Of a DNA stretch of 64,000 bases, positions 1,338 through 63,140 are shown piece after piece; position 1 is the stretch's first letter; every line of letters starts with the position of its first letter. The position numbers and the translations under genes are program-made. Under the pieces are notes generated by a model, which had not been told where the DNA came from, did not search any database, and was given only the letters and a program-made list of their open reading frames with translations. This DNA is from a virus: the IMG/VR virus record IMGVR_UViG_3300009079_000013. One strand, given 5' to 3'.

Positions 1338-1739
1338 ATGGAAAACACAAGAACGTTAGATGTAGTATTTATAAGAGAGTTTAAGTTTTTTATAAAAAAG
1401 TACAATAAAAAACAAAAAGAAGATTATCTTTTAAATGTAAATAAAATCATAAAAGATAAATTTAATACTAAGTTCTTAGTTCCAAATCCCGTTCAATCTT
1501 TTTTACTAAACTATGAAATAAAAAAGTTATTAGATAAAGCTATTAATATCAAGAACCAAAAATATAATAGGATAGTGTTCTTAAATTCTACTATAACATT
1601 TGGAGGAATTCAAAATACTATTGAATTTTTAGATAAAGAATACTTGAATGTTAAATTTAATTACATAATGATAGATCCTAAAAAAGATTTTGATGAAAGC
1701 TTGTTTGATAAATCTAAATTAACATTTTTAAGTTACTGA
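1338..1739 (+). CDS. Hypothetical protein
   Basis: ORF contiguous with upstream operon. Confidence 0.55.
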   Translation: MENTRTLDVVFIREFKFFIKKYNKKQKEDYLLNVNKIIKDKFNTKFLVPNPVQSFLLNYEIKKLLDKAINIKNQKYNRIVFLNSTITFGGIQNTIEFLDKEYLNVKFNYIMIDPKKDFDESLFDKSKLTFLSY

Positions 1740-2683
1740 CCGCATCCAGGACCTTCACTATAACAATCAGGACCTTCTCCGTATTTTGCTATTATTTCTC
1801 CTAAATCTTCCATTTTATTCTTTGGATTAGGGTTGTTTCTTCTTCTTGGCGGATTTTCTGGACCTTCTTCTACATCTGGAATAACTTCTATTTCTTCTTC
1901 TGTATCTGGTTCAGCTGTTTCTAAGTCTCCAATTACGTCAATTGCTAATATAGCTTCTGCCTGTTCTCTGGATATTCCCATATAATCCATTAAGTCTTGA
2001 ACTGCTCCTTCTAATGACATATCATTTTTAGGATTAGGATTAATTCTTCTTCTCGGTGGATTTTCTGGACCTTCTCCGGGAATAACTTCTGGTTCTTCTG
2101 TTTCTATTTCAGGCTCTTCTGTTTCTGGATATGCCATATCAAAGTAATTCTCTGATATTGAATTAAACTCCTTAAAGCTATTACATTTACCTTCAGACAT
2201 TGCTTCTTTTCTAGCTTTTTGTAATTTTTCTAAAGCTGCGTTTTCTTCTTTAATTACTTTCTCAACATTACTATTAATGTCTACTGATTTTTTAATAGAT
2301 CCTTCTAAATCTTTAGATTCCGATATAAACTCATTAAAACTAGGTAAAGTTGATTCATTAGTGTCATCCCATTCTCCTACTTCAACTGTTGCTACGCCAG
2401 TTATATATGGATCAGGATATGTAACCGGTTTCTCTCCTTCTTGTTTATATACAAGGTCATGACTCATAGCTTTATATGTAGAGTTATAATGAGGATTCTT
2501 AAAAAGAGGATCCCTTTTTACAACTCTTCTGTAATCTTTAAGTTTATCCGATTCAGATGTTTTTTTACCATTAGCATTTTTATCATATATTAATGAATCG
2601 TTTCCACCAAATCCTGGTTTTTTAAGATCCATATATTGATCAAAATTATAAACATCTCTTCTATGTACGTCAAATATATCCAT
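1733..2683 (-). CDS. Acidic hypothetical (probable virion/head) protein with duplicated GPENPPRRRxNPNPKN motif
   Basis: Downstream of tail tube gene; contains SFNEFISE and SFKEFNSISE motifs. Confidence 0.6.
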   Translation of the reverse strand: MDIFDVHRRDVYNFDQYMDLKKPGFGGNDSLIYDKNANGKKTSESDKLKDYRRVVKRDPLFKNPHYNSTYKAMSHDLVYKQEGEKPVTYPDPYITGVATVEVGEWDDTNESTLPSFNEFISESKDLEGSIKKSVDINSNVEKVIKEENAALEKLQKARKEAMSEGKCNSFKEFNSISENYFDMAYPETEEPEIETEEPEVIPGEGPENPPRRRINPNPKNDMSLEGAVQDLMDYMGISREQAEAILAIDVIGDLETAEPDTEEEIEVIPDVEEGPENPPRRRNNPNPKNKMEDLGEIIAKYGEGPDCYSEGPGCGQ

Positions 2684-11684: not shown

Positions 11685-12213
11685 ACAAAATAGAGGAGAA
11701 TTTAGCTATAGCAATAGGAAATTTTTTAATAAGAAGAAAAAACAATCTATATTAGGAACTAAACCTGTTAAAAAATCTAAGGAAAATATACCATTGGGAG
11801 AATTCTCAAATGAAACTGATAAGGACATTAAGAAAATGTTAAATGGTTGGTATAAACCAAATTGGCTCCCTTCCGTAGAAACAGCTATTAGAAAAGGACA
11901 AAAAATAGAGGCCATAAAAATATTTAAAACAAAAGAGGATCTACGATTATCACATGCTAAAAGCACAGTAGATACATATATTGAAACTGGTAACTGGCAG
12001 CACTATCTCTTTTTAAGAAGAGGCAGATTAGATCAAGCGTTTATAAACGTAACAGGTTGCACTATTGAAAAGTTTGAAAAAGAGTATCATCTTAATAAAG
12101 AAGAGGCAGACCGTACATATGCAGATGCAAATCAACCTTTATTTACCATAGATACAGTATTAGCTGTAGCTCACGAATACGTAAATGTAATTAGAAAGGA
12201 TTCCAAATACTAA
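11674..12213 (+). CDS. Hypothetical protein with ribosomal L7/L12-CTD-like motif
   Basis: GQKIEAIKIFKTKEDLRLSHAKSTVD. Confidence 0.5.
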   Translation: MKFKQNRGEFSYSNRKFFNKKKKQSILGTKPVKKSKENIPLGEFSNETDKDIKKMLNGWYKPNWLPSVETAIRKGQKIEAIKIFKTKEDLRLSHAKSTVDTYIETGNWQHYLFLRRGRLDQAFINVTGCTIEKFEKEYHLNKEEADRTYADANQPLFTIDTVLAVAHEYVNVIRKDSKY

Positions 12214-12224
12214 AAAATATTAAA

Positions 12225-12566
12225 ATGAGAAAGACACTGCAAAAAATAGCATGGAAAACAAATAAGTGGTCTATTAAAATAAGTCTACTTAATATTTATT
12301 TAGGTGGAGATAATCATAAATTTGGATTTCAAATACTTAACATAGATAACTCGCGTTCCTTTTGGTCTGGATCTTTATTTGAAATCACTTGGTATTTTCC
12401 AACAGTTACGCATGCTGGAGAACTAATAATTGATATTTTATTTTTATTTAAAAAATGGAATACTTGGTGCATTGATATGGACGAAAGAGTTTTATGGGGC
12501 TCAGGTCTCAGCAAATGGGAAAGAGTTAATAGATATGTTCACAATAAATTAAACCAATTAAGATGA
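12225..12566 (+). CDS. Hypothetical Trp-rich protein
   Basis: ORF ends inside a degenerate copy of the cassette repeat (KLNQLR*). Confidence 0.6.
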   Translation: MRKTLQKIAWKTNKWSIKISLLNIYLGGDNHKFGFQILNIDNSRSFWSGSLFEITWYFPTVTHAGELIIDILFLFKKWNTWCIDMDERVLWGSGLSKWERVNRYVHNKLNQLR

Positions 12567-12571
12567 GTAAA
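12550..12571 (+). repeat. Degenerate copy of cassette-junction repeat (TAAACCAATTAAGATGAGTAAA)
   Basis: Matches the 60-63 kb repeat at both ends. Confidence 0.65.
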
Positions 12572-12700
12572 GGAGAAATAAAACAATTAGCAGAAGAAAT
12601 TAGTTTCAGATTATTAGCTACAAGAAAACATCCAGAACATGAATGGTTAATCAAGAGATTAAATAAGGCTATTAATGAAAAATCAAAAGAATATGAGTAG
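12563..12700 (+). CDS. Small hypothetical protein (45 aa, not in ORF track)
   Basis: MSKGEIKQLAEEISFRLLATRKHPEHEWLIKRLNKAINEKSKEYE*, starts at the repeat ATG. Confidence 0.6.
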   Translation: MSKGEIKQLAEEISFRLLATRKHPEHEWLIKRLNKAINEKSKEYE

Positions 12701-14935: not shown

Positions 14936-16933
14936 TTATTTTTTGCGGCTTTCCGCATTTCTCATAAGAGAATCTATATAAGTCTGAGAGTAACCTCTCG
15001 TCATATCAACTACCCGGTTTACTGGGATTGCACCTTCTGTACTTTGGCTCTCGTTGATTTGTTGTAATTTTCTATTTGCTTTTTCTCTTTCTACTCTTTC
15101 GTTAACTCCTCTGAAATCTATTTCATCCCAGAAAGATTTAACTTGATATGGAGTGTTCAAGTTGTAAAGTTGAGTTTTAGTATGAATACGATTCTGTTCA
15201 GCTTCGTTCATATTACCCCAATCTGCTTTGTATTCGTTTGGCATATATTTAATATGATTAGGAATAGCTTTATTAACGTTTTCAACAATTGCTGAAATAA
15301 TACTTGTTACATCAGCTTCGTTAAACCATACTGAAGCGTTTGTTGCTTCAACAACGGCTTGTTTAATGTTAGTATCTAAGTTATAGAAAGCGTCTTTCTT
15401 TTCTTGAGACAATACTTTTAAGAAAGGATATTTATTTTCTAATACAGCTGTTGCTGAGTTATTCTTTACAGTTTTTATTACTTCGTCAATTCCTTGAGTG
15501 ATCGTTTCAATCTGCTGACTTTCATTTAATCCAGATACTTTATTTAGTAATCCTTTATTAGATGAAAACTTTCCACTGTTTAAAGATTCTGCAATATATT
15601 CAGCATAACTAATCCCTTTTGAAGATTTTTCAGCTACATATTCAACATATTCTCTATTTAATTGTGAATTTTCAGCAATATATTCAGAAAACTGAATTCC
15701 TTTATTAGCACCTTCTGCTACATATTCAGTGTATTGAATACCTTTATCTACTTCTTCAGCTAAATATGATTGGTAATTAATACTCTTGTTTAAGTTCTCT
15801 TTTAAATAATCTTGGTAATTAATGCTCTTATTTAGATTTTCACCTAAGTAATTTTGATAATTTAAACTTTGATTAAGTTTTTCTCCTAAGTAATTTTGAT
15901 ATTCAATACCATTATTAGTAGTTTCAGCAACATGCTCAGTATATTTAACTGACTGATTTAATTTACTTGATAAATAATCAGTATATTTAGTTAAATTCTC
16001 AACTTTCTCAGCTAGGTAATTAACATATTTTCCCACGCCTGATGTTGGTGAAACTTCAACTGAATTAGTTTCTTTTGAAACAGATTCATTAACTGTTTTA
16101 AGAGCAGCCATTTCGTTTTGAATAGATTCAAATTTTTCTTTAACTATCTCAGTATAATGATTCATATCATTTTTATTAACATACTCGTTCATTTTGCTTT
16201 TATTATTTTGATTGCTTAAACTATTAGCTAGCTTGTTATTATTTTTGTTATTTATCTTGTAAAATTTATAATTATTTGAAAAATTTAAATTTTCAGATAT
16301 ATCTTCTAATCTTTCTTTATTTATAAAGGAGTTTTCTTTTAATAAACTGTAATTTTCAGTTATCATATCGAAATTAGTCTTTAAGGATTCATTCACTGTT
16401 TTCTTTAAAACTGCTTCGGTAAATCCAGGCTCAGCAACCAGGTCATATGTAAAAATTCTATGAAGTTTTACTTTACCTTCATTTAGTACTTGTCCTGCTG
16501 CTCTGGAAGAAACTGATATATTAACACCTCCGTCGATAAGAGCTTTAGCTATTTTACCATTAGGCGTATTTTCTAAAATTCTAAGCTTAATGTTTACTTT
16601 ATCTCCTCCATCATGTGTTAATCCTTCTATTATATGAGAAGCACTTTTAAGAGTTACTTCAAAAGAAGGTGGATGATCTAAATCTCCAACTAGTTGTCTA
16701 GTTTTTATCTTTTCATTTAAATATTGTAAATGTGGAAGATATTCCTCTTTTTCATAAACACGTTGATTATTATTCTTTTGTCCAAAGACTGCGCATACTC
16801 CTTCGAGTATCGTGTTATTTACACCGTTACTTTTGACACTTAATTTTTCACCTACGTTTTCGACGATTAATACTATATCATCTCCGCTTGTGTTTTCTAT
16901 GAAACTACTTGGTTTTAGATTTGAACTATTCAC
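14936..16933 (-). CDS. gp21: Prohead protease (gp21-like) fused to scaffold/core domain with 14-aa repeats
   Basis: LEG..KNNNQRVY, GDLDHP, SHII, TPNGKIAKAL, SVSSRAAG, TYDLVAEPGF, then long coiled-coil repeat region; directly upstream of capsid gene. Confidence 0.88.
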   Translation of the reverse strand: MNSSNLKPSSFIENTSGDDIVLIVENVGEKLSVKSNGVNNTILEGVCAVFGQKNNNQRVYEKEEYLPHLQYLNEKIKTRQLVGDLDHPPSFEVTLKSASHIIEGLTHDGGDKVNIKLRILENTPNGKIAKALIDGGVNISVSSRAAGQVLNEGKVKLHRIFTYDLVAEPGFTEAVLKKTVNESLKTNFDMITENYSLLKENSFINKERLEDISENLNFSNNYKFYKINNKNNNKLANSLSNQNNKSKMNEYVNKNDMNHYTEIVKEKFESIQNEMAALKTVNESVSKETNSVEVSPTSGVGKYVNYLAEKVENLTKYTDYLSSKLNQSVKYTEHVAETTNNGIEYQNYLGEKLNQSLNYQNYLGENLNKSINYQDYLKENLNKSINYQSYLAEEVDKGIQYTEYVAEGANKGIQFSEYIAENSQLNREYVEYVAEKSSKGISYAEYIAESLNSGKFSSNKGLLNKVSGLNESQQIETITQGIDEVIKTVKNNSATAVLENKYPFLKVLSQEKKDAFYNLDTNIKQAVVEATNASVWFNEADVTSIISAIVENVNKAIPNHIKYMPNEYKADWGNMNEAEQNRIHTKTQLYNLNTPYQVKSFWDEIDFRGVNERVEREKANRKLQQINESQSTEGAIPVNRVVDMTRGYSQTYIDSLMRNAESRKK
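15578..16030 (-). repeat. 11 tandem degenerate 42-nt (14-aa) coding repeats, Y-x-x-Y-[LIV]-x-E
   Basis: KYVNYLAEKVENLT/KYTDYLSSKLNQSV/.../NYQNYLGENLNKSI/NYQDYLKENLNKSI/.../SYAEYIAE. Confidence 0.85.
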
Positions 16934-57659: not shown

Positions 57660-58481
57660 ATGCCTGAATTAGCAGAACTTAGATTAACAGCGGATTATAT
57701 AAATCAAACAGTTAAAGGAAAAACCTTTAATAAAGTTAAGAATAATCCAGAACATAAATGGAAACCCTTATTTCAAAAACATCCATCATTTACTATTAAA
57801 GCCAAAAGTAGAGGTAAGGAGTTAATAGTATATATGAACAATTATCCTATAAGAATGACAATGGGTATGTCAGGTTATTTTAGAATAACTAAGACAGGTG
57901 AAGAGCATAAACATTCGCATATTATTTTTGAATCAACTTGTGGAATGTCATTATCATTTATTGACATGAGAAGATTTGGTAAATGGTGGCCAGGACAGGA
58001 GTGGTCAAATGACAGAGGCCCTGACCCAACTCTTGATTTTGAGGAATTTGTTAGTAATGTTAAATCTAATTTACATAAGAAAATATTTAATAAACCTATA
58101 TGTGAAATACTTTTGAATCAAAAGTATTTTAATGGTATAGGTAACTATTTAAGAGCTGAAATAATTTATAGAATCGAGGAACTAAGTCCTTTTATGAAAG
58201 CAAGTGAAGCAATAGAAAAATATCCAGACATATTAAAACTTTGTAAATATATGCCAGAATTAGCTTATATCATGGGCGGAGGAAGCATTAAAGATTGGAA
58301 AAATCCATTTTTAAAAGAGTCAGGTAATTTTATGAAATGCTATGGTAATAGTGACATGATTAGAGAAAAAGATGGAACCGGAAGAACGATATGGTATAGA
58401 CCTGAACACCAATGGAAAAAAATAGATGAAGATCAGTGGGACCATTATTCAGGTTTACCTAATCCTAAATACTATAGTTAA
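57660..58481 (+). CDS. Fpg/Nei-family DNA glycosylase (zincless-finger type)
   Basis: N-terminal MPELAE, RGKEL, MGMSG, DMRRFG, H2TH LLNQKYFNGIGNYLRAE, GRTIWY; no 4-Cys finger. Confidence 0.88.
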   Translation: MPELAELRLTADYINQTVKGKTFNKVKNNPEHKWKPLFQKHPSFTIKAKSRGKELIVYMNNYPIRMTMGMSGYFRITKTGEEHKHSHIIFESTCGMSLSFIDMRRFGKWWPGQEWSNDRGPDPTLDFEEFVSNVKSNLHKKIFNKPICEILLNQKYFNGIGNYLRAEIIYRIEELSPFMKASEAIEKYPDILKLCKYMPELAYIMGGGSIKDWKNPFLKESGNFMKCYGNSDMIREKDGTGRTIWYRPEHQWKKIDEDQWDHYSGLPNPKYYS

Positions 58482-58487
58482 TATTAT

Positions 58488-58497
58488 TTAGTATAAT
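58488..58497 (+). promoter_or_regulatory. TTAGTATAAT promoter-like motif heading ligase + cassette array
   Basis: 15 nt upstream of ligase ATG. Confidence 0.5.
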
Positions 58498-58512
58498 ATA
58501 AAAAAATAAAAA

Positions 58513-59832
58513 ATGTTTAATAGATTACAGCAATTCGTAGAGAGAAGTAACTCAACAAACTCAAACACTGATAAATTAAATGTCTTAAGAGACTATATAT
58601 CAGACCAGGAGGTCCTTCAAGCCCTTAGGTATGTATATTCCCCCTTTAAACAGTATTATGTTACTTCAAAAAATCTTAAAAAGAGAAGTGACCTGGTTAG
58701 TCCAGTCGGAAACCAATACGGTAGCATCTTTACCCTATTAGATACGTTAAATGATAGAATAATCACAGGACATGATGCCATTGCAGCCGTAAACAGATTT
58801 ATTCTCGAAAACAGACAATACGAAGACCTTATTTATAACATCTTCGACCGGAATCTTAAGACCCGTTCTACAACTTCAATGATTAACAAAGTTGTACCAG
58901 GTTTGGTTCCAACATTCGATGTAGCATTAGCCGCAACTTATGATGAGAAAACCAAAAAGAAAGTCAATCTTGATTCTGATGAATGGTACCTTTCTAGAAA
59001 ATTGGACGGAGTCAGATGTTTAGCATTCTTCGACAATTTTGGAACTGTTACTTTCAAAAGTAGAAGTGGCAAACCATTTGATACACTTGGAAACGTGGCC
59101 AAAGAACTTGAAGGTCTTAAACTCTATAACATTGTAATGGATGGAGAGATTTGCATTGTTGATGAAAATGGCGATGAAGATTTTCAATCAATCATCAAAG
59201 AAATTAAAAGAAAAGACCACACCATCGAAAACCCATTATTTCAAATTTTCGATATGATATCGTTAGAAGACTTTGAGAATAAGGCATCTAGGGAAAAATT
59301 AAGTGAGAGGCTTGATAACCTTCAAATGTCAATCGACCATGTTTATACCCCAATGGTCCCACCAACATACTTCAGAGTACTTGAACAGGACCTCTTAACC
59401 AGTTGGGATATGTTTGAGTCTAAGATGGACCATGCAGTTCAAAGCGGTTGGGAAGGTCTAATGCTAAGAAAAGACGATAAGTACCAGGGAAAACGCAGTA
59501 CTGATATCTTAAAAGTAAAGAAATTCTATGATGAAGAGTATATTGTCGTAGACTTAGAGAACTCCCCAAACCGTGTAATTGTCAATGGGCTTGAAGTAGA
59601 AGAAATGATGCTAAAGAATGTTATCATAGAACACAAAGGAAACAGAGTACAGGTTGGAAGTGGTTTTACAATTGATGAAAGAAGAAGTTATTTTAAAAAT
59701 CCTAATAAAATATTAGGTAAGACCATAACCGTACAGTACTTTGAAACTACAAAAAATAATCAAGGTACAGAATCACTTAGGTTCCCAGTGATTAAAGCAG
59801 TTTATGAAAACGGAAGAGTTGATTATGTATAA
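58513..59832 (+). CDS. ATP-dependent DNA ligase
   Basis: KLDGVR, SRSGK, MDGEI, FD, EGLMLR, KVK, VGSGF, SLRFP. Confidence 0.93.
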   Translation: MFNRLQQFVERSNSTNSNTDKLNVLRDYISDQEVLQALRYVYSPFKQYYVTSKNLKKRSDLVSPVGNQYGSIFTLLDTLNDRIITGHDAIAAVNRFILENRQYEDLIYNIFDRNLKTRSTTSMINKVVPGLVPTFDVALAATYDEKTKKKVNLDSDEWYLSRKLDGVRCLAFFDNFGTVTFKSRSGKPFDTLGNVAKELEGLKLYNIVMDGEICIVDENGDEDFQSIIKEIKRKDHTIENPLFQIFDMISLEDFENKASREKLSERLDNLQMSIDHVYTPMVPPTYFRVLEQDLLTSWDMFESKMDHAVQSGWEGLMLRKDDKYQGKRSTDILKVKKFYDEEYIVVDLENSPNRVIVNGLEVEEMMLKNVIIEHKGNRVQVGSGFTIDERRSYFKNPNKILGKTITVQYFETTKNNQGTESLRFPVIKAVYENGRVDYV

Positions 59833-59844
59833 ACCAAAACAACG

Positions 59845-59973
59845 ATGAGTAATATAGATATTGTAATTATATACCTATTTGTGCCATTTTTAATGGGTGT
59901 AACAGCTGTTTTGGGTGGGGATGTCTTTAAAGATTGGATAAAACATAAAATTAAACAAAAAGATGATGAATAA
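59845..59973 (+). CDS. Cassette 1: 42-aa single-TM peptide (not in ORF track)
   Basis: MSNIDIVIIYLFVPFLMGVTAVLGGDVFKDWIKHKIKQKDDE*. Confidence 0.65.
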   Translation: MSNIDIVIIYLFVPFLMGVTAVLGGDVFKDWIKHKIKQKDDE

Positions 59974-60283
59974 AAAAGAATTTAAACCCCTAAAATGTTT
60001 TTTAAAATGGTCTTATGGTGAACCAAAACACCCTAAAGAATCTATGACAGAGTTTACCTGGGGTTCAGGTATTAATATGACAATTGCGGGACCAGAATTA
60101 AAGTTTGATGAAAATACAACATTATCCGAATGGAGACAGTCAGAAATAAAAAAGTGGGAGAATCTTATGGAAGATTTTAATAAAGATAAAAGAATACAAC
60201 AGTTAGACTTTAGAATAAACCCAAATAGGAATGATGTCGAAGAAGTTGAATCAGATATTAACTTCATTAAGTGGGTAGATTAA
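59963..60283 (+). CDS. Cassette 2: hypothetical
   Basis: Starts and stops in repeats. Confidence 0.7.
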   Translation: MMNKKEFKPLKCFLKWSYGEPKHPKESMTEFTWGSGINMTIAGPELKFDENTTLSEWRQSEIKKWENLMEDFNKDKRIQQLDFRINPNRNDVEEVESDINFIKWVD

Positions 60284-60295
60284 ACCAAAACAAAG

Positions 60296-60556
60296 ATGAG
60301 TAAAAAAGACAATAATTTAGAAATGTTATTAGTTGGTTTATTCCCACAAAACAAAATTAAAGTTGATACTGAAATCCACAGTAAATTCGGTATGTGTATT
60401 GATGTGAATGTTGATGATAAGAAAATAAAATTCAAAATACCAGAAATAGACCCAATAGAAAGGATGATGTTTTCAGTTGAAGATTGGGCTATGGAATACA
60501 GCCATTTAATCGTGCAGGAAATCAGAAATCAATTAAACCAAAACAAAGATGAGTAA
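60296..60556 (+). CDS. Cassette 3: hypothetical
   Basis: MSK... ends NQNKDE*. Confidence 0.7.
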   Translation: MSKKDNNLEMLLVGLFPQNKIKVDTEIHSKFGMCIDVNVDDKKIKFKIPEIDPIERMMFSVEDWAMEYSHLIVQEIRNQLNQNKDE

Positions 60557-60689
60557 AGAAGAAATTATAGATTCCTTATACGATATATTAGATGAAATAG
60601 ATGAAACACCAAAGGATGAATTTGTTGATATAGTGTATATTAAAGAAACGCTAGAAAATATAATAAAACAAAACAAAGAAGATGAGTAA
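60549..60689 (+). CDS. Cassette 4: 46-aa acidic peptide (not in ORF track)
   Basis: MSKEEIIDSLYDILDEIDETPKDEFVDIVYIKETLENIIKQNKEDE*. Confidence 0.7.
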   Translation: MSKEEIIDSLYDILDEIDETPKDEFVDIVYIKETLENIIKQNKEDE

Positions 60690-60825
60690 AGATTATTTAG
60701 ATAAGTCGGAAGAAAGACAAAAGCAGAACATAGAAAAGATTAAACCAAAACAAATGCCACATCCTATTCCTAAATTGAAATGGTGGCAGATGTTAATAGG
60801 AGGATTCAAAGGTAGAAGATATTAA
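60682..60825 (+). CDS. Cassette 5: 47-aa basic peptide containing an internal repeat copy (not in ORF track)
   Basis: MSKDYLDKSEERQKQNIEKIKPKQMPHPIPKLKWWQMLIGGFKGRRY*. Confidence 0.65.
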   Translation: MSKDYLDKSEERQKQNIEKIKPKQMPHPIPKLKWWQMLIGGFKGRRY

Positions 60826-60840
60826 ACCAAAACAAATAAG

Positions 60841-61056
60841 ATGAGAAATAATATAGAAGACTTATCATTAGAATTAATAAAAGACATTAAAAGTTTAGAG
60901 GGGTTTAAAAGTTCACTCATAGAGGAAGAACTTATACATAACTTATCAGAAAAATTAGACAATTTAACTAGTGAAGACAAAGAGGAAAGAATTAAGGCAT
61001 TACACAATATGTTTGCACTAGGTCAAATATTTACAAACCAAAACAAAGATGAGTAA
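60841..61056 (+). CDS. Cassette 6: hypothetical
   Basis: Ends NQNKDE*. Confidence 0.7.
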   Translation: MRNNIEDLSLELIKDIKSLEGFKSSLIEEELIHNLSEKLDNLTSEDKEERIKALHNMFALGQIFTNQNKDE

Positions 61057-61219
61057 AGAAATTGAAAAAATAAGTAAGCAATTATTTGAACTTAAAGAAT
61101 GGCTATCTGAACAACCAGGACATCCTAGTCATCTTTCTAATTTACCTCAGTGGTTTTGGGAAGGTTGGGGTGAATGTATAGATGATTTAAAACGATTAAG
61201 TAAAACAAAACAAAGATGA
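61049..61219 (+). CDS. Cassette 7: 56-aa peptide (not in ORF track)
   Basis: MSKEIEKISKQLFELKEWLSEQPGHPSHLSNLPQWFWEGWGECIDDLKRLSKTKQR*. Confidence 0.7.
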   Translation: MSKEIEKISKQLFELKEWLSEQPGHPSHLSNLPQWFWEGWGECIDDLKRLSKTKQR

Positions 61220-61644
61220 GTAAAATTAAAGAAGAGTTAAAACCCGTGAGATTAACAAAAACTGAAACCTGTTTAACTTATGTTTTAAGACGAATGGGAT
61301 TAGAGCCTGATTTTTGTACTTATGAAACATTTCATGAACACTTTAATCAATTTACATTTTCTAGGTATCAAAAAAAAATAAAAGTTGGTGATATTCTTCT
61401 ATGGGATAAAACTAGTACATGGGAATGGTTACCTTGGACTATAAATGACAACGGTATTATTGAATGGAAAAATATACCAGTAGGATTTCATTTTGCAATA
61501 TATGAAGGTGATGGTATGTTTAGTGATTGTACAAGACTAGTAACGCCACCACATCCCACACTTAGATTAAGAACAATGACAGACTTGCAAAAGAACCCAG
61601 ATTTTGTATTAAGATTAGAACTAAACCAAAACAAAGATGAGTAA
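61216..61644 (+). CDS. Cassette 8: NlpC/P60-like (Cys-His) protein
   Basis: ETCLTYV, KVGDILLW, HFAIYEGDG; ends NQNKDE*. Confidence 0.6.
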   Translation: MSKIKEELKPVRLTKTETCLTYVLRRMGLEPDFCTYETFHEHFNQFTFSRYQKKIKVGDILLWDKTSTWEWLPWTINDNGIIEWKNIPVGFHFAIYEGDGMFSDCTRLVTPPHPTLRLRTMTDLQKNPDFVLRLELNQNKDE

Positions 61645-61834
61645 AGAAGAAGATAAGGAATTAGTCAGCAGGTTACTAAAAGCAGCTAACGAAATTCATA
61701 AGAAAGGATTAGCTAAAGCAAATTATATACATCTACCAGCAAAATTCATACAACAACGAGCAGACGAAGAAGGAGTTACATTTGATGAAATGGTAAAGAT
61801 AATTGAAGAAGAGATTAAACCAAAACAAAGATGA
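61637..61834 (+). CDS. Cassette 9: hypothetical
   Basis: Ends KPKQR*. Confidence 0.7.
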   Translation: MSKEEDKELVSRLLKAANEIHKKGLAKANYIHLPAKFIQQRADEEGVTFDEMVKIIEEEIKPKQR

Positions 61835-62043
61835 GTAGAGAATATATTAAAGAACAATACCAACATCTACAATTATTAAGTAGCAACATAACACCAACAA
61901 GACCAGGTGTGGGATCCTATGTAACTGTAGATGGATTAGAAATATCTGAAGACTATTTTCCAGAAGAATTTGAACAAATAGAAAATGCCTGGGATAGTGT
62001 TGCTAAAAAAATAAAAGAACTAAACCAAAACAAAGATGAGTAG
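61831..62043 (+). CDS. Cassette 10: hypothetical
   Basis: Ends NQNKDE*. Confidence 0.7.
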   Translation: MSREYIKEQYQHLQLLSSNITPTRPGVGSYVTVDGLEISEDYFPEEFEQIENAWDSVAKKIKELNQNKDE

Positions 62044-62263
62044 AGGAGAATTTGCAGTATCACCCCAAGTTGCTAAAGTACTTAGTGATATACAACAAAG
62101 AGAAGAAGATTTTATTAAAGGTAAATCTATAAAAGTAGAAGAATGGGACCTCGAAGACATTCAAAAAGAATATGAACTTATTCTTAAAAAAGAGAGTAAA
62201 CTCTCGTCTAACAATAGAAAAAAGATTTTAGAAATATTAAACCAAAACAAAGAAGATGAGTGA
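62036..62263 (+). CDS. Cassette 11: hypothetical
   Basis: Ends NQNKEDE*. Confidence 0.7.
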   Translation: MSRGEFAVSPQVAKVLSDIQQREEDFIKGKSIKVEEWDLEDIQKEYELILKKESKLSSNNRKKILEILNQNKEDE

Positions 62264-62522
62264 AGAAGAAATAAAAACACTTAGACCATCATTCAAATTT
62301 GGAGGAATGATTATGACTGATTGGTTTGAAGTTTCAGAAGGTAAAGGATATTGTATAATAAGAAGTGGATTAAAACACGCTGATGGTATTACAAAATCAC
62401 CTTATCATTATGAATATTTCAAAGGTGGTAACAATGCAACAAATGAAGTTTTAAACCATTTTAATAATTGGTGGAAACTATTAAACCAAAACAAAGATGA
62501 GCAAAGGAGAATGGATATTTGA
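62256..62522 (+). CDS. Cassette 12: hypothetical
   Basis: Reads through a mutated repeat: NQNKDEQRRMDI*. Confidence 0.7.
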   Translation: MSEEEIKTLRPSFKFGGMIMTDWFEVSEGKGYCIIRSGLKHADGITKSPYHYEYFKGGNNATNEVLNHFNNWWKLLNQNKDEQRRMDI

Positions 62523-62691
62523 ATACAAAAATCATACCTATCATCTACAAGACAGAGATGATAGTTTTAAGAAAGGAGATTTGTTTTTTGAAAGATCAGG
62601 TAGATTAGGTCCTATTGAATGGGACGGTAAGGGACAACTTAACTATCATTGTAAAAAAATAGTAAGTATTAAACCAAAACAAAGAAGATGA
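62497..62691 (+). CDS. Cassette 13: hypothetical
   Basis: Ends KPKQRR*. Confidence 0.7.
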   Translation: MSKGEWIFEYKNHTYHLQDRDDSFKKGDLFFERSGRLGPIEWDGKGQLNYHCKKIVSIKPKQRR

Positions 62692-62912
62692 GTAAAGATG
62701 AAATAATAGATGGATATACCTTTAAGTATAATTCAGAAAATAAATTCTACGAATGTAGAGGAGATGTTTGTTATGATGATGAACATGATGAAGTACCTGA
62801 AAAGGGACTTTGGGATGCAGCACATAAGCTTGAACATAAATTAAAGAATCAAGGTATTGATTGTGATGTAGAGCATTCTGAAAAAGGTTGGGTAGAAGTA
62901 TGTATAAACTAA
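62688..62912 (+). CDS. Cassette 14: acidic hypothetical
   Basis: Stop is the repeat's TAA. Confidence 0.7.
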   Translation: MSKDEIIDGYTFKYNSENKFYECRGDVCYDDEHDEVPEKGLWDAAHKLEHKLKNQGIDCDVEHSEKGWVEVCIN

Positions 62913-62927
62913 ACCAAAACAAAAAAG

Positions 62928-63140
62928 ATGAGTAAAACTAATTACCAACCCTTAATATGTTCAGATAAAGAACTAAAGGAGATAGCAGAACATTGGTGTG
63001 TTTTAGTTGGTGAAAAACCAACAGCATCAATATTAAATGCGTTTATAATGGGAGCAAAAATAGCCGTATCTAATAACGGATGGATAGTAAATAAAGACAG
63101 TAATGAAGATGATTTTGACTACGAATCGGGGATGTGCTAA
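62928..63140 (+). CDS. Cassette 15: hypothetical (terminal)
   Basis: Starts in last repeat; has its own stop. Confidence 0.7.
   Translation: MSKTNYQPLICSDKELKEIAEHWCVLVGEKPTASILNAFIMGAKIAVSNNGWIVNKDSNEDDFDYESGMC

Follow-up and report, generated by a model that had tools for sequence, protein, structure and literature searches.

The elements closest to the junction described here are the promoter-early stem-loops (PeSLs) of T4-type phages (Arbiol et al. 2010, PMC2839356; Comeau et al. 2014, PMC4122927) and the start-associated sequences (SAS) of Cluster K mycobacteriophages (Pope et al. 2011, PMC3203893). PeSLs, similarly to the junction, are short conserved regulatory motifs around ORFan cassettes, situated in hyperplastic regions of T4-type genomes, and provide shared homology for the insertion, deletion and replacement of cassettes with no dedicated recombinase. 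A PeSL, however, lies between genes and consists of a sigma-70-type early promoter and a terminator stem-loop, so that every PeSL cassette is a transcription unit of its own, whereas the junction is a translation stop/start of 19-25 nt without promoter-like hexamers or stem-loop, is part of the coding sequence of the two genes that it joins, and belongs to an array that is apparently one transcription unit. Mini-circles have been shown for PeSLs. SAS share with the junction the form of an asymmetric short repeat, in one orientation and immediately 5' of the start codon, in non-structural genes that belong to different families; host genomes have no copies of them, and they have been proposed to take part in translation initiation or to bind a factor (PMC3203893). 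Unlike the junction, SAS are 13 bp long, include a Shine-Dalgarno core, lie 3-7 bp 5' of the start, carry in about half of the copies an added inverted-repeat extension and are scattered over half a genome instead of forming arrays; neither cassette exchange nor three-frame termination is described for them.

Other systems are comparable in part. In Flavobacterium johnsoniae, A residues at -3, -6, -12 and -13 are positive determinants of initiation (Baez et al. 2019, PMC6847099). The junction has the same four A positions, no Shine-Dalgarno sequence, little structure and only one AUG close to the start; these Kozak-like determinants are, however, a statistical preference of host genes and no fixed sequence, and they leave unexplained the invariant C/G positions of the junction and the presence of the motif on array genes only. 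In termination-reinitiation coupling, including calicivirus TURBS, where a conserved motif upstream keeps the ribosome in place to restart (reviewed in PMC12548453), stop and start are likewise a few bases apart (ATGA and similar), but TURBS operate with eukaryotic 40S subunits, while coupling at the junction is suggested by its anatomy. Integron attC/cassette arrays also consist of promoterless, one-orientation cassettes with a repeated site between them and a high turnover; the junction array differs from them in having no integrase and no folded attC-like site, and in that its junction is coding.

Organization of the array

The window (the whole 64,000-nucleotide stretch of DNA analysed) belongs to an uncultured, AT-rich, large T4-like phage. 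A Shine-Dalgarno sequence was found upstream of none of 75 non-array genes (0/75), and this absence, together with distant capsid and topoisomerase relatives, suggests a Bacteroidota host; a promoter-like repeat of the window that resembles TATAAT and not the Bacteroidota promoter type counts against such a host. The copy of this repeat 5' of the DNA ligase gene is the likely start of the array's transcription unit, and within the array neither a + strand copy of it nor a + strand terminator-like site was found. Behind the ligase, 16 unrelated mini-genes are joined by a sequence of 19-25 bases in which one small gene ends and the next begins. The array contains 15 core copies and one degenerate copy of this junction, all on the + strand, from 59830 to 62936 (Table 1). 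Searching the window with a 23-mer (up to 3 mismatches) gave 9 matches, all on the + strand, against 0 expected; the 11-nt core AA[AC]CAAAACAA gave 15 matches, all on the + strand and inside 59832-62922, and with up to 1 mismatch 18 matches against 3.5 expected. The repeat is far beyond chance.

Table 1 Features of the junction array and related sites in the window. Frames A, B and C are those in which an ORF enters the junction at its 3' end.
Feature	Position	Strand	Basis
Promoter-like repeat, 5' of ligase	58487..58499	+	exact 13-mer, also before other + strand genes
ATP-dependent DNA ligase; stop codon coincides with bases 1-3 of junction copy 1 (frame A)	58513..59832	+	Pfam PF01068, PF14743; ORF list
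Junction copy 1, 1 mismatch; start codon 59845	59830..59852	+	23-mer search
Cassette ORF 1, 42 aa, hydrophobic; frame C, ends in degenerate copy	59845..59973	+	ORF list
Junction copy 2, degenerate; start codon 59963	59952..59973	+	family D1
Cassette ORF 2, 106 aa; frame A	59963..60283	+	ORF list
Junction copy 3, matches 25-nt consensus in full (-16 to +9); start codon 60296	60280..60304	+	23-mer search, logo
Cassette ORF 3, 86 aa; frame C	60296..60556	+	ORF list
Junction copy 4, exact; start codon 60549	60534..60556	+	23-mer search
Cassette ORF 4, 46 aa; frame C; 12-member family, 12 loci	60549..60689	+	family clustering
Junction copy 5, variant longer by 3 bases; start codon 60682	60664..60689	+	core search
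Cassette ORF 5, 47 aa; frame A; two cassettes fused in frame at eroded internal copy	60682..60825	+	family 9
Eroded internal junction copy, 2 bases lost 5' of ATG, read through in frame	60741..60756	+	core search
Junction copy 7, variant spacing; start codon 60841	60823..60848	+	core search
Cassette ORF 6, 71 aa; frame C	60841..61056	+	ORF list
Junction copy 8; no frame-A stop, since C replaces first T; start codon 61049	61034..61056	+	23-mer search
Cassette ORF 7, 56 aa; frame B	61049..61219	+	ORF list
Junction copy 9; start codon 61216	61201..61223	+	23-mer search
Cassette ORF 8, 142 aa, NlpC/P60-like pattern; frame C	61216..61644	+	sequence pattern, homologs
Junction copy 10, exact; start codon 61637	61622..61644	+	23-mer search
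Cassette ORF 9, 65 aa; frame B	61637..61834	+	ORF list
Junction copy 11; start codon 61831	61816..61838	+	23-mer search
Cassette ORF 10, 70 aa; frame C, stop TAG	61831..62043	+	ORF list
Junction copy 12; start codon 62036	62021..62043	+	23-mer search
Cassette ORF 11, 75 aa; frame C, stop TGA	62036..62263	+	ORF list
Junction copy 13, longer by 3 bases; start codon 62256	62238..62263	+	core search
Cassette ORF 12, 88 aa; frame C, runs 6 codons beyond copy without frame-C stop	62256..62522	+	ORF list
Junction copy 14, AGC for AGT; start codon 62497	62482..62504	+	23-mer search
Cassette ORF 13, 64 aa; frame B	62497..62691	+	ORF list
Junction copy 15, longer by 3 bases; start codon 62688	62670..62695	+	core search
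Cassette ORF 14, 74 aa; frame A	62688..62912	+	ORF list, family 7
Junction copy 16, variant spacing; start codon 62928	62910..62935	+	core search
Last cassette ORF, 70 aa; has a stop of its own and no junction 3' of it, then convergent genes	62928..63140	+	ORF list
Diverged junction copy outside array, between ORFs 12225-12566 and 12563-12700 (ATGA overlap)	12548..12570	+	family D2

Reading frames and protein termini

Upstream ORFs enter the junction in all three frames: 4 in frame A, with the stop at -15, 3 in frame B, in which the stop overlaps the next start as ATGA, and 8 in frame C. A previous, sequence-only reading of this DNA had given the same split for the 15 upstream ORFs and had stated that none of them stops ahead of its junction, which holds for all 15; its observations that TAG and TGA are both used in frame C (cassette ORFs 10 and 11), that one frame-C ORF (cassette ORF 12) reads through a mutated copy, and that the motif has A at -3, -6, -12 and -13 are correct as well, these four positions being the ones reported for F. 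johnsoniae (PMC6847099). In other contigs, 244 ORFs divide into A 47, B 64 and C 133, and counted per family the use of frames is uneven (C 86, B 49, A 33; p = 2e-6).

One protein family may end in frame A, B or C, or junction-free (families 2, 3, 4, 10, 19, 21 and 25), and the members without a junction are without a junction-coded tail. The 142-aa family of cassette ORF 8 has a conserved core, a junction tail in some members only, and ordinary stand-alone homologs outside arrays that are full length and have their own termini; in cassette ORF 3 the junction-type tail is present in 14/14 database homologs too. The expectation of the earlier reading that native termini are replaced by junction tails is supported, homologs outside arrays having no tails and one family entering the junction in different frames. 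Since it is conserved whichever frame the upstream ORF takes, the junction is a nucleotide-level element rather than a protein motif.

Sequence and stop codons of the junction

The consensus of the junction is TTAAACCAAAACAAAGATGAGTAAA, with a hard core from -15 to +4 and, according to the logo, sharp edges of the conserved block at -16 and +9. In 195 copies that were not chosen as exact 21-mers, positions -15, -14, -2, -1 and +4 are 88-94% conserved, and conservation falls to 51-66% at +5 to +9. The ATG follows the core at a spacing of +2 in 297/353 copies and of +5 in 32/353; the looser junction pattern admitted a few false sites, e.g. inside thymidylate synthase genes. Non-A positions are conserved at 89-98%, and the near-invariant C at -11, -10 and -5 and G at -1 are beyond the reach of the known A-rule. 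Structure prediction makes the junction more accessible than array interiors (0.64 vs 0.49, p = 6e-4), with a small gain over ordinary gene starts (0.64 vs 0.56, p = 0.06); it folds no better than shuffles, and no dyad symmetry was found in it.

The consensus carries a stop in every one of the three frames, as had been claimed for the 24-nt repeat. By chance, three-frame stops in a 23-nt span arise in 2-3% of shuffles of the motif, the figures being 5% for the window composition and 2% for all window ATGs; however, 19% (14/72) of the ordinary gene starts here have the same property, which is uncommon but not unique. That the junction stops every frame universally holds for the consensus, and all frames are used, but the frame-C stop is found in only 45-54% of unbiased copies, whichever the frame class, and junction stops are no better conserved where they are used. 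When the frame-C stop is missing from a copy, frame-C ORFs just run on for a few codons. The proposal that the repeat suits the capture of partial genes and de novo gene birth received no support: cassette bodies are under purifying selection (median dN/dS 0.26; 32/37 families below 0.5), and the 142-aa homologs outside arrays are full length.

Distribution and cassette exchange

At least 117 stretches of IMG/VR carry the exact junction 21-mer; it is found in none of the cultured phages, and in only 5 MAG contigs of a cellular-genome collection of 185,579 species genomes. Motif-bearing contigs span 23-41% GC, with the junction core kept at 88-100%, and each genome, of 156-380 kb, has one or two tightly clustered arrays, all on a single strand. 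The 445 junction-started ORFs fall into about 309 unrelated families, 232 of them singletons; among the window cassettes no paralogy and no similarity beyond the junction was detected. Cassette bodies have diverged synonymously by 0.3-1.2 over pairs in which the junction core is kept.

Phage breakpoints often fall at gene boundaries. The downstream neighbour of homologous cassettes differs in 105/125 pair comparisons and the upstream neighbour in 45/65. Of the HSP ends, 38% lie no more than 20 nt from a junction ATG, vs 6.5% for random nearby positions, and one-sided homology ends at the boundary for 82% of junctions vs 30% of ordinary gene starts (odds ratio 11), the compared loci having been collected via the junction motif itself, which biases them toward cassette-only homology. 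In three loci (L099, L055 and L058) homology to the window in the ligase ends exactly at junction copy 1 and is followed by three different genes. Cassette ORFs 9 and 13 are each 93% identical to a counterpart (in L022 and L039, respectively), with junctions as both limits of homology, and the nucleotide homology of cassette ORF 5 with L023 ends at 60753. As homology between contigs breaks at junctions, what is exchanged as a unit is the cassette that lies between two of them.

Discussion

We propose that the repeat is probably a standard stop/start junction that joins accessory mini-genes into one polycistronic unit in uncultured, AT-rich, Shine-Dalgarno-less phages. Judged from the anatomy of the array and the comparison of contigs, its role would include both initiation with coupling on the mRNA and recombination on the DNA. 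On the mRNA, the junction would be an unstructured, A-rich, Shine-Dalgarno-independent initiation region; since the upstream ORF ends between -15 and +8 from the next ATG, a terminating ribosome could restart there (termination-reinitiation coupling). On the DNA, its 19-25 identical bases would offer a shared site for homologous recombination, at which cassettes may be gained, lost or swapped without a dedicated recombinase, like PeSLs, and the three-frame stops would let the junction tolerate any incoming frame. As a design selected in its own right these stops are less well explained than as a useful by-product of the sequence (ATGA followed by Ser-Lys as second and third codon). The junction also marks gene swaps in more than 100 other uncultured phage contigs, and so resembles a natural, standardised connector of accessory genes in phages. 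General initiation has no need of it, as other genes of the window phage start without the exact junction; a sequence-specific reader, or homogenisation driven by recombination, may be the real cause of its conservation.

Such a reader leads to the alternative that survives best, albeit as an unlikely one: the junction may mainly be an operator at which a sequence-specific regulator switches the translation or stability of all array genes together, be it an RNA-binding protein of phage or host, a small RNA or, similarly to calicivirus TURBS, a segment of rRNA; the value for recombination and the three-frame stops would then be secondary. The RegA sites of T4, which overlap start codons, are a precedent. 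It would account for the conservation of the non-A positions, though the initiation rule covers A residues only, as well as for the sharp edges of the block, the dispensability of the junction for other genes of the phage and the near absence of the motif from cellular genomes, and mycobacteriophage SAS were proposed as sites bound by an unknown factor (PMC3203893). However, no candidate reader was found, and a RegA-family gene had no match in 5 large motif-bearing genomes, a weak negative as the control was also missed. The motif is common to phages with and without a gp23-type capsid gene, thus a phage-encoded reader must be shared by them too.

It is less probable still that the junction has no special function, being an ordinary gene start that spread with mobile cassettes and was homogenised by frequent recombination or gene conversion, with the three-frame stops arising by chance in an AT-rich junction. 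The frequency of such stops at ordinary gene starts over the same span, the lack of better conservation where they are used and the absence of the frame-C stop from about half of the unbiased copies are all in line with this; the persistence of the core across contigs of such different GC content, over pairs so diverged in their cassette bodies, is not. Eroded copies such as 60741-60756 and 59952-59973 imply that decay happens, and is presumably selected against elsewhere.

That every junction serves as a promoter, or as the initiator of a phage-modified RNA polymerase, so that each cassette has a leaderless or very short-leader mRNA (or, as a variant, that it is an RNA processing site), is improbable. 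A sequence-specific motif in one orientation abutting the ATG is what a start-codon-overlapping promoter is expected to look like, and 2 copies of the promoter-like repeat elsewhere in the window, just 5-7 nt 5' of an ATG, imply that short leaders may occur in this phage. Nevertheless, the junction is unlike this repeat, sigma-70 elements or the Bacteroidota -7/-33 elements, the upstream ORFs overlap the next ATG as in an operon, and F. johnsoniae transcripts are mostly leadered (PMC6847099).

We give very little credence to an integron-like platform, in which the junction would be the site of a dedicated site-specific recombinase inserting and excising cassettes. Promoterless small ORFs in one orientation, a single repeated site between them and high turnover recall such a platform, but a tyrosine integrase was absent from 5 records with the motif, three of which are at least 96% complete, while the control was detected in 14/14 genomes, no recombinase was found by Pfam scan among the array-flanking genes of the window and four related loci, and the junction has neither dyad symmetry nor a fold and is inside coding sequence. 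An origin by tandem duplication of one small gene, its conserved N- and C-termini surviving as the repeat, which the regular spacing and the first three and last six residues shared by many cassettes might evoke, is refuted by the absence of paralogy among the cassettes and by the use of the repeat in three different frames, which places conservation in the DNA and not in the peptide.

A diverged junction copy is also located outside the array (Table 1), and in L099 a homolog of window 12212-12585 sits immediately 5' of the ligase.

Organization of the cassette array

Behind the DNA ligase gene of the window, 16 small ORFs of 42-142 codons follow one another without gaps on the + strand as far as position 63140 (ORF list), and a copy of the junction, a 19-25-nt repeat which ends one small ORF and starts the next, is found at every ORF boundary of this array. 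In the window the 23-mer of the sequence-only reading occurs in 9 copies at up to 3 mismatches, with 0 expected, and an 11-nt core in 15 copies, all on the + strand and all inside 59832-62922; the junction repeat itself cannot be a product of chance. That reading, in which the junction stops the incoming ORF in any of the three frames and starts the next one, had counted the ORF ends of the array correctly, as the comparison with the ORF list showed. The opening triplet of the motif is the stop codon of four ORFs, the ligase included (frame A); three others terminate in the ATGA overlap (frame B), and eight cross the motif and stop where codons two and three of the following gene together make a stop (frame C). 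Among these eight, one ends with TAG, one with TGA and one extends six codons beyond a mutated copy. Relative to the ATG, the junction stops are positioned at -15, +2 or +6.

Features of the window and of two further motif-bearing contigs (L013 and L131)
Feature	Position	Strand	Remarks
58-nt direct repeat	1811-2075		84% identical, 207-nt spacing
316-aa ORF containing the 58-nt repeat	1733-2683	-	
13-nt TATAAT-containing promoter-like repeat	4723, 8330, 10518, 57410, 58487	+	before several replication and repair genes
Diverged junction copy outside the array	12548-12570		
Gene with prohead protease-like N-terminus	14936-16933	-	
42-nt periodic repeats within that gene	15587-16029		7 copies, 60-72% identical
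Fpg/Nei-type DNA glycosylase gene	57660-58481		PF01149, PF06831, PF09292
DNA ligase gene	58513-59832	+	PF01068, PF14743
Junction copies 1-16	59830-62936	+	
Degenerate junction copy	59952-59973		
Two cassettes fused in frame	60682-60825		
Largest cassette	61216-61644		
Split thymidylate synthase gene	L013:1625-3473		
Two adjacent small genes with another repeated context	L131:7120-7400		

The cassettes, i.e. the small ORFs between two junctions, are not paralogs of one another in the window, and the repeat is read in three frames, which rejects a tandem duplication of a single gene. Slippery-site frameshifting cannot be a general function of the junction either, since an A-AAA-AAG run is present only in copy 16 of the window copies. 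In one place two cassettes are fused in frame, a first cassette of 24 codons running through an eroded junction copy that has lost two bases into the second; the homology of another contig (L023) to this region ends at the eroded copy.

Three-frame stops as part of one conserved sequence

Stops in all three frames within a 23-nt span are found in 2-3% of the shuffles of the motif, whether the ATG is fixed or free, in 5% of random sequences of window composition and at 2% of all window ATGs. They are notable to this extent, but they are not unique to the junction, as 14 of the 72 ordinary gene starts of the window (19%) carry them as well, which implies that compact AT-rich phage junctions often hold three-frame stops. 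The proposal that the three stops constitute a frame-universal design was evaluated on 337 junctions sorted by the open upstream frame (C 136, B 69, A 64, unclear 68). Any frame is tolerated and all frames are used. The frame-C stop is present in approximately 70% of all copies and in 45-54% of the unbiased copies, the same whichever frame is used, the frame-B stop is near 95% in every frame class, and the frame-A stop is only modestly better kept when used (95-97%) than when not (80-88%). Better keeping of a stop by the upstream ORF that needs it was therefore not seen for frame C, and was modest for frame A, in these 337 junctions. At copies without the stop, frame-C ORFs simply extend 1-4 codons further. 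Frame use, counted per family, is uneven (C 86, B 49, A 33; p = 2e-6). The three stops look like elements of a single conserved sequence rather than features selected one by one.

Diversity and exchange of the cassettes

The junction-started ORFs (n=445, median 64 aa) fall into 309 families, 232 of which are singletons, and none of the window cassettes has a Pfam or PHROG match above threshold. Homologous pairs, compared after the junction-coded codons were trimmed, have a median dN/dS of 0.26, with 32 of 37 families below 0.5, thus the cassettes are functional genes; they probably serve host takeover or anti-defence. The family of the largest, 142-aa cassette, likewise without a Pfam match, has invariant Cys19, His92 and His113 residues and a GD-hLLWDK / FHFAIYEG pattern, in the order known from the NlpC/P60-type papain-fold enzymes. 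Ordinary genes homologous to this cassette are found outside arrays as well.

Individual cassettes of the window have counterparts, 93-97% identical, in contigs that otherwise differ, the homology being bounded by both flanking junctions. When homologous cassettes of different loci were compared, the downstream neighbour differed in 105 of 125 comparisons and the upstream one in 45 of 65, in a set of loci collected via the motif itself and hence biased towards cassette-only homology. Of the HSP ends, 38% are no more than 20 nt away from a junction ATG, compared to 6.5% at nearby random positions, the HSP counts being non-independent observations. Homology present on one side of a boundary stops there in 82% of the cases at junctions and in 30% at ordinary gene starts in these loci (odds ratio 11). 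Three contigs share the ligase gene with the window at 87-91% identity as far as junction copy 1, and the gene that follows it differs between the window, L099/L055 and L058.

The sequence-only reading further proposed that cassette proteins, compared to homologs outside arrays, would have their native termini replaced by junction-coded ones. The termini agree with this: in one and the same family the members may run into the junction in one frame or another, or have no junction at all, and the junction-less members do not carry the junction-coded tail (families 2, 3, 4, 10, 19, 21, 25). More than one ending type was found in 17 of the 77 multi-member families, and repeat-free homologs with the same tails were not seen among the homologs examined. 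In the 142-aa cassette family a conserved core is followed by differing C-terminal tails, the junction tail and the Met-Ser-Lys start being present in some members only; three of its homologs that were examined in other contigs have the make-up of ordinary genes, each with a leader and a stop of its own and set apart by intergenic spacers. In the 86-aa cassette family all 14 homologs found have junction-type ends, hence some families seem to be native to arrays.

Distribution and conservation of the junction

The exact 21-mer is present in at least 117 stretches of IMG/VR contigs. A search of 185,579 prokaryote species, represented by one genome each, found it in only 5 contigs (L118-L122). 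All five come from MAGs, which belong to unrelated phyla (labels Microbacteriaceae, Promethearchaeia, Campylobacteraceae and Aenigmatarchaeota); the contigs contain junction arrays and probably represent phage DNA that was mis-binned. Since the motif is essentially absent from these species genomes, we reject the possibility that phages copied it from the translation signals of host genes. Against cultured phages, a 39-nt junction query had matches at chance level only, and no paper was found that prints the letters of the motif.

The conserved block is sharply delimited at -16 and +9, and the ATG stands 2 bases after the core in 297 of 353 copies and 5 bases after it in 32. Copies outside the exact-21-mer selection are 88-100% conserved from -15 to +4, falling to 51-66% from +5 to +9; a looser junction pattern let in a few false sites. 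Large genomes have one or two tight single-strand arrays; a 242-kb contig, for example, has 21 copies packed into 5.3 kb, and a 156-kb contig has 6 copies within 1.2 kb. A gp23-type capsid gene was found in 10 of the 25 larger motif-bearing records, and a complete 79-kb genome with terminal repeats has a three-cassette array and no such capsid gene.

Full-length thymidylate synthase genes (323-371 aa) in L043, L065 and L118 begin with the junction, which is therefore not restricted to mini-genes. In L013 the thymidylate synthase gene is split by approximately 1.2 kb, possibly an intron or homing-endonuclease insertion, by analogy with the td gene of T4. The two adjacent small genes of L131 share another repeated stop/start context of approximately 35 nt that resembles the 3' end of thymidylate synthase genes in other loci; this context could represent a second dialect of the junction, or what is left of gene ends that were duplicated.

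Phage, host and transcription of the array

The window encodes a gp23-type major capsid protein, a gp21-type prohead protease, both topoisomerase II subunits and a UvsW-type helicase, and belongs to a distant T4-like phage of approximately 30% GC. None of 50,697 deposited phage records is closely related to it, and a near-identity search of the array region against cultured phages gave no match. The capsid and topoisomerase are closest (30-55% identity) to those of metagenomic huge phages, Lak phages of Prevotella and Tenacibaculum phages, and none of the 75 non-array genes is preceded by a G-rich Shine-Dalgarno region, their upstream regions being about 50% A. Together, these relatives and the lack of Shine-Dalgarno sequences make a Bacteroidota-type host plausible. 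The 13-nt promoter-like repeat resembles a sigma-70 -10 box and not the Bacteroidota TAnnTTTG, which is odd for such a host; two of its copies stand only 5-7 nt ahead of an ATG, so that the transcripts would have no leader or a very short one.

The transcription unit appears to begin at the promoter-like repeat before the ligase gene. The array contains no + strand copy of this repeat and no + strand terminator-like site, and no promoter-like hexamer pair coincides with a junction; judged from these signals, the array is likely to be transcribed into one polycistronic mRNA. The junction is rich in A and contains a single AUG, and each of the four positions at which an A raises initiation in F. 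johnsoniae is occupied by A (PMC6847099). Its predicted unpaired share is 0.64, compared to 0.49 in array interiors (p = 6e-4) and 0.56 at other gene starts (p = 0.06). The minimum free energy of 0 to -3.6 kcal/mol in 50-nt windows is no better than that of shuffles, and neither dyad symmetry nor an attC-like inverted repeat was found in the junction. Inverted-repeat partners of the junction lie 45-75 nt downstream in 3-4 cassettes (I1, I2, I10); they are not systematic and were taken as chance.

Comparison with known shuffling and translation motifs

An integron-like system was rejected, since neither an integrase, in the records and array-flanking genes scanned, nor a folded attC-like site was found. 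Integrons rely on the IntI tyrosine recombinase, whereas none is linked to the array, no tyrosine recombinase being found in 5 motif-bearing records (3 near complete) or among the array-flanking genes scanned with Pfam; also, the imperfect inverted repeats of the folding attC have no counterpart in the junction.

The junction shares with the start-associated sequences (SAS) of Cluster K mycobacteriophages the character of a short asymmetric repeat standing in one orientation directly before the starts of different families, and near-absence from cellular genomes (5 MAG contigs among the 185,579 species here). In contrast to the Shine-Dalgarno core and 13-bp consensus of the SAS (PMC3203893), the junction lacks a G-rich core and is unrelated in sequence, and the arrays are particular to it.

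The similarity to PeSLs is closer: a conserved regulatory motif doubling as a shuffling site flanks ORFan cassettes in a variable region of a T4-type genome, and homology between genomes breaks at the motif through cassette indels and replacements. The junction, however, fails both defining PeSL features, the strong sigma-70-like early promoter and the transcription-terminating stem-loop. PeSL cassettes form mini-circles via recombination between motifs. The overlap or close spacing of stop and start is shared with TURBS, reinitiation elements in which a conserved motif is complementary to the rRNA of the small subunit.

Proposed function of the junction

The stops lie in a stretch from 15 nt upstream to 8 nt downstream of the ATG, and the natural reading is termination-reinitiation, known at closely spaced stops and starts (reviewed in PMC12548453), in which the terminating ribosome would restart at the next ATG. 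The 19-25 identical bases at every boundary and the lack of an integrase in near-complete genomes point to homologous recombination between junctions as the putative route of cassette exchange, as was shown for the shared motifs of PeSLs (PMC2839356, PMC4122927). Termination-reinitiation together with homologous recombination does not account for the C and G positions of the junction, which are nearly invariant although other genes of the phage do without the motif. This leaves room for a specific reader of the junction (a protein, a small RNA or rRNA) or for homogenisation by recombination. The RegA-family repressor gene (PF01818) had no match in 5 large motif-bearing genomes, a search in which the control genomes gave no match either.

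We tentatively put forward, as a possibility held with well under even confidence, that the junction is a frame-agnostic plug-and-play adaptor common to unrelated phages of Shine-Dalgarno-blind (Bacteroidia-type) hosts, which would, like a bacterial version of TURBS, actively keep the terminating ribosome in place or reload it, possibly through rRNA pairing or S1 binding, and would serve as the common recombination site for a pan-phage pool of several hundred mini-gene families moving across lineages. If so, phages can assemble their accessory-gene islands with a standard connector that ends the previous gene in any frame, starts the next without Shine-Dalgarno and gives recombination a common address, which would explain the movement of hundreds of unrelated mini-genes among uncultured phages. 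Such a natural and highly conserved junction makes the translation of internal cistrons by Shine-Dalgarno-ignoring ribosomes testable with a two-gene reporter, and would provide a ready-made operon linker for Bacteroidota. The motif also flags real mini-genes of 25-100 codons missed by gene callers, as well as mis-binned phage contigs in MAGs.

Other features of the window

The gene directly before the ligase encodes an Fpg/Nei-type DNA glycosylase with a NEIL1-like DNA-binding end, which to our knowledge is unusual for T4-like phages. The 42-nt periodic repeats lie in a gene whose N-terminus matches prohead protease, and look like a repetitive scaffold-like C-terminal extension. The 58-nt direct repeat lies inside a 316-aa ORF and suggests an internal domain duplication.
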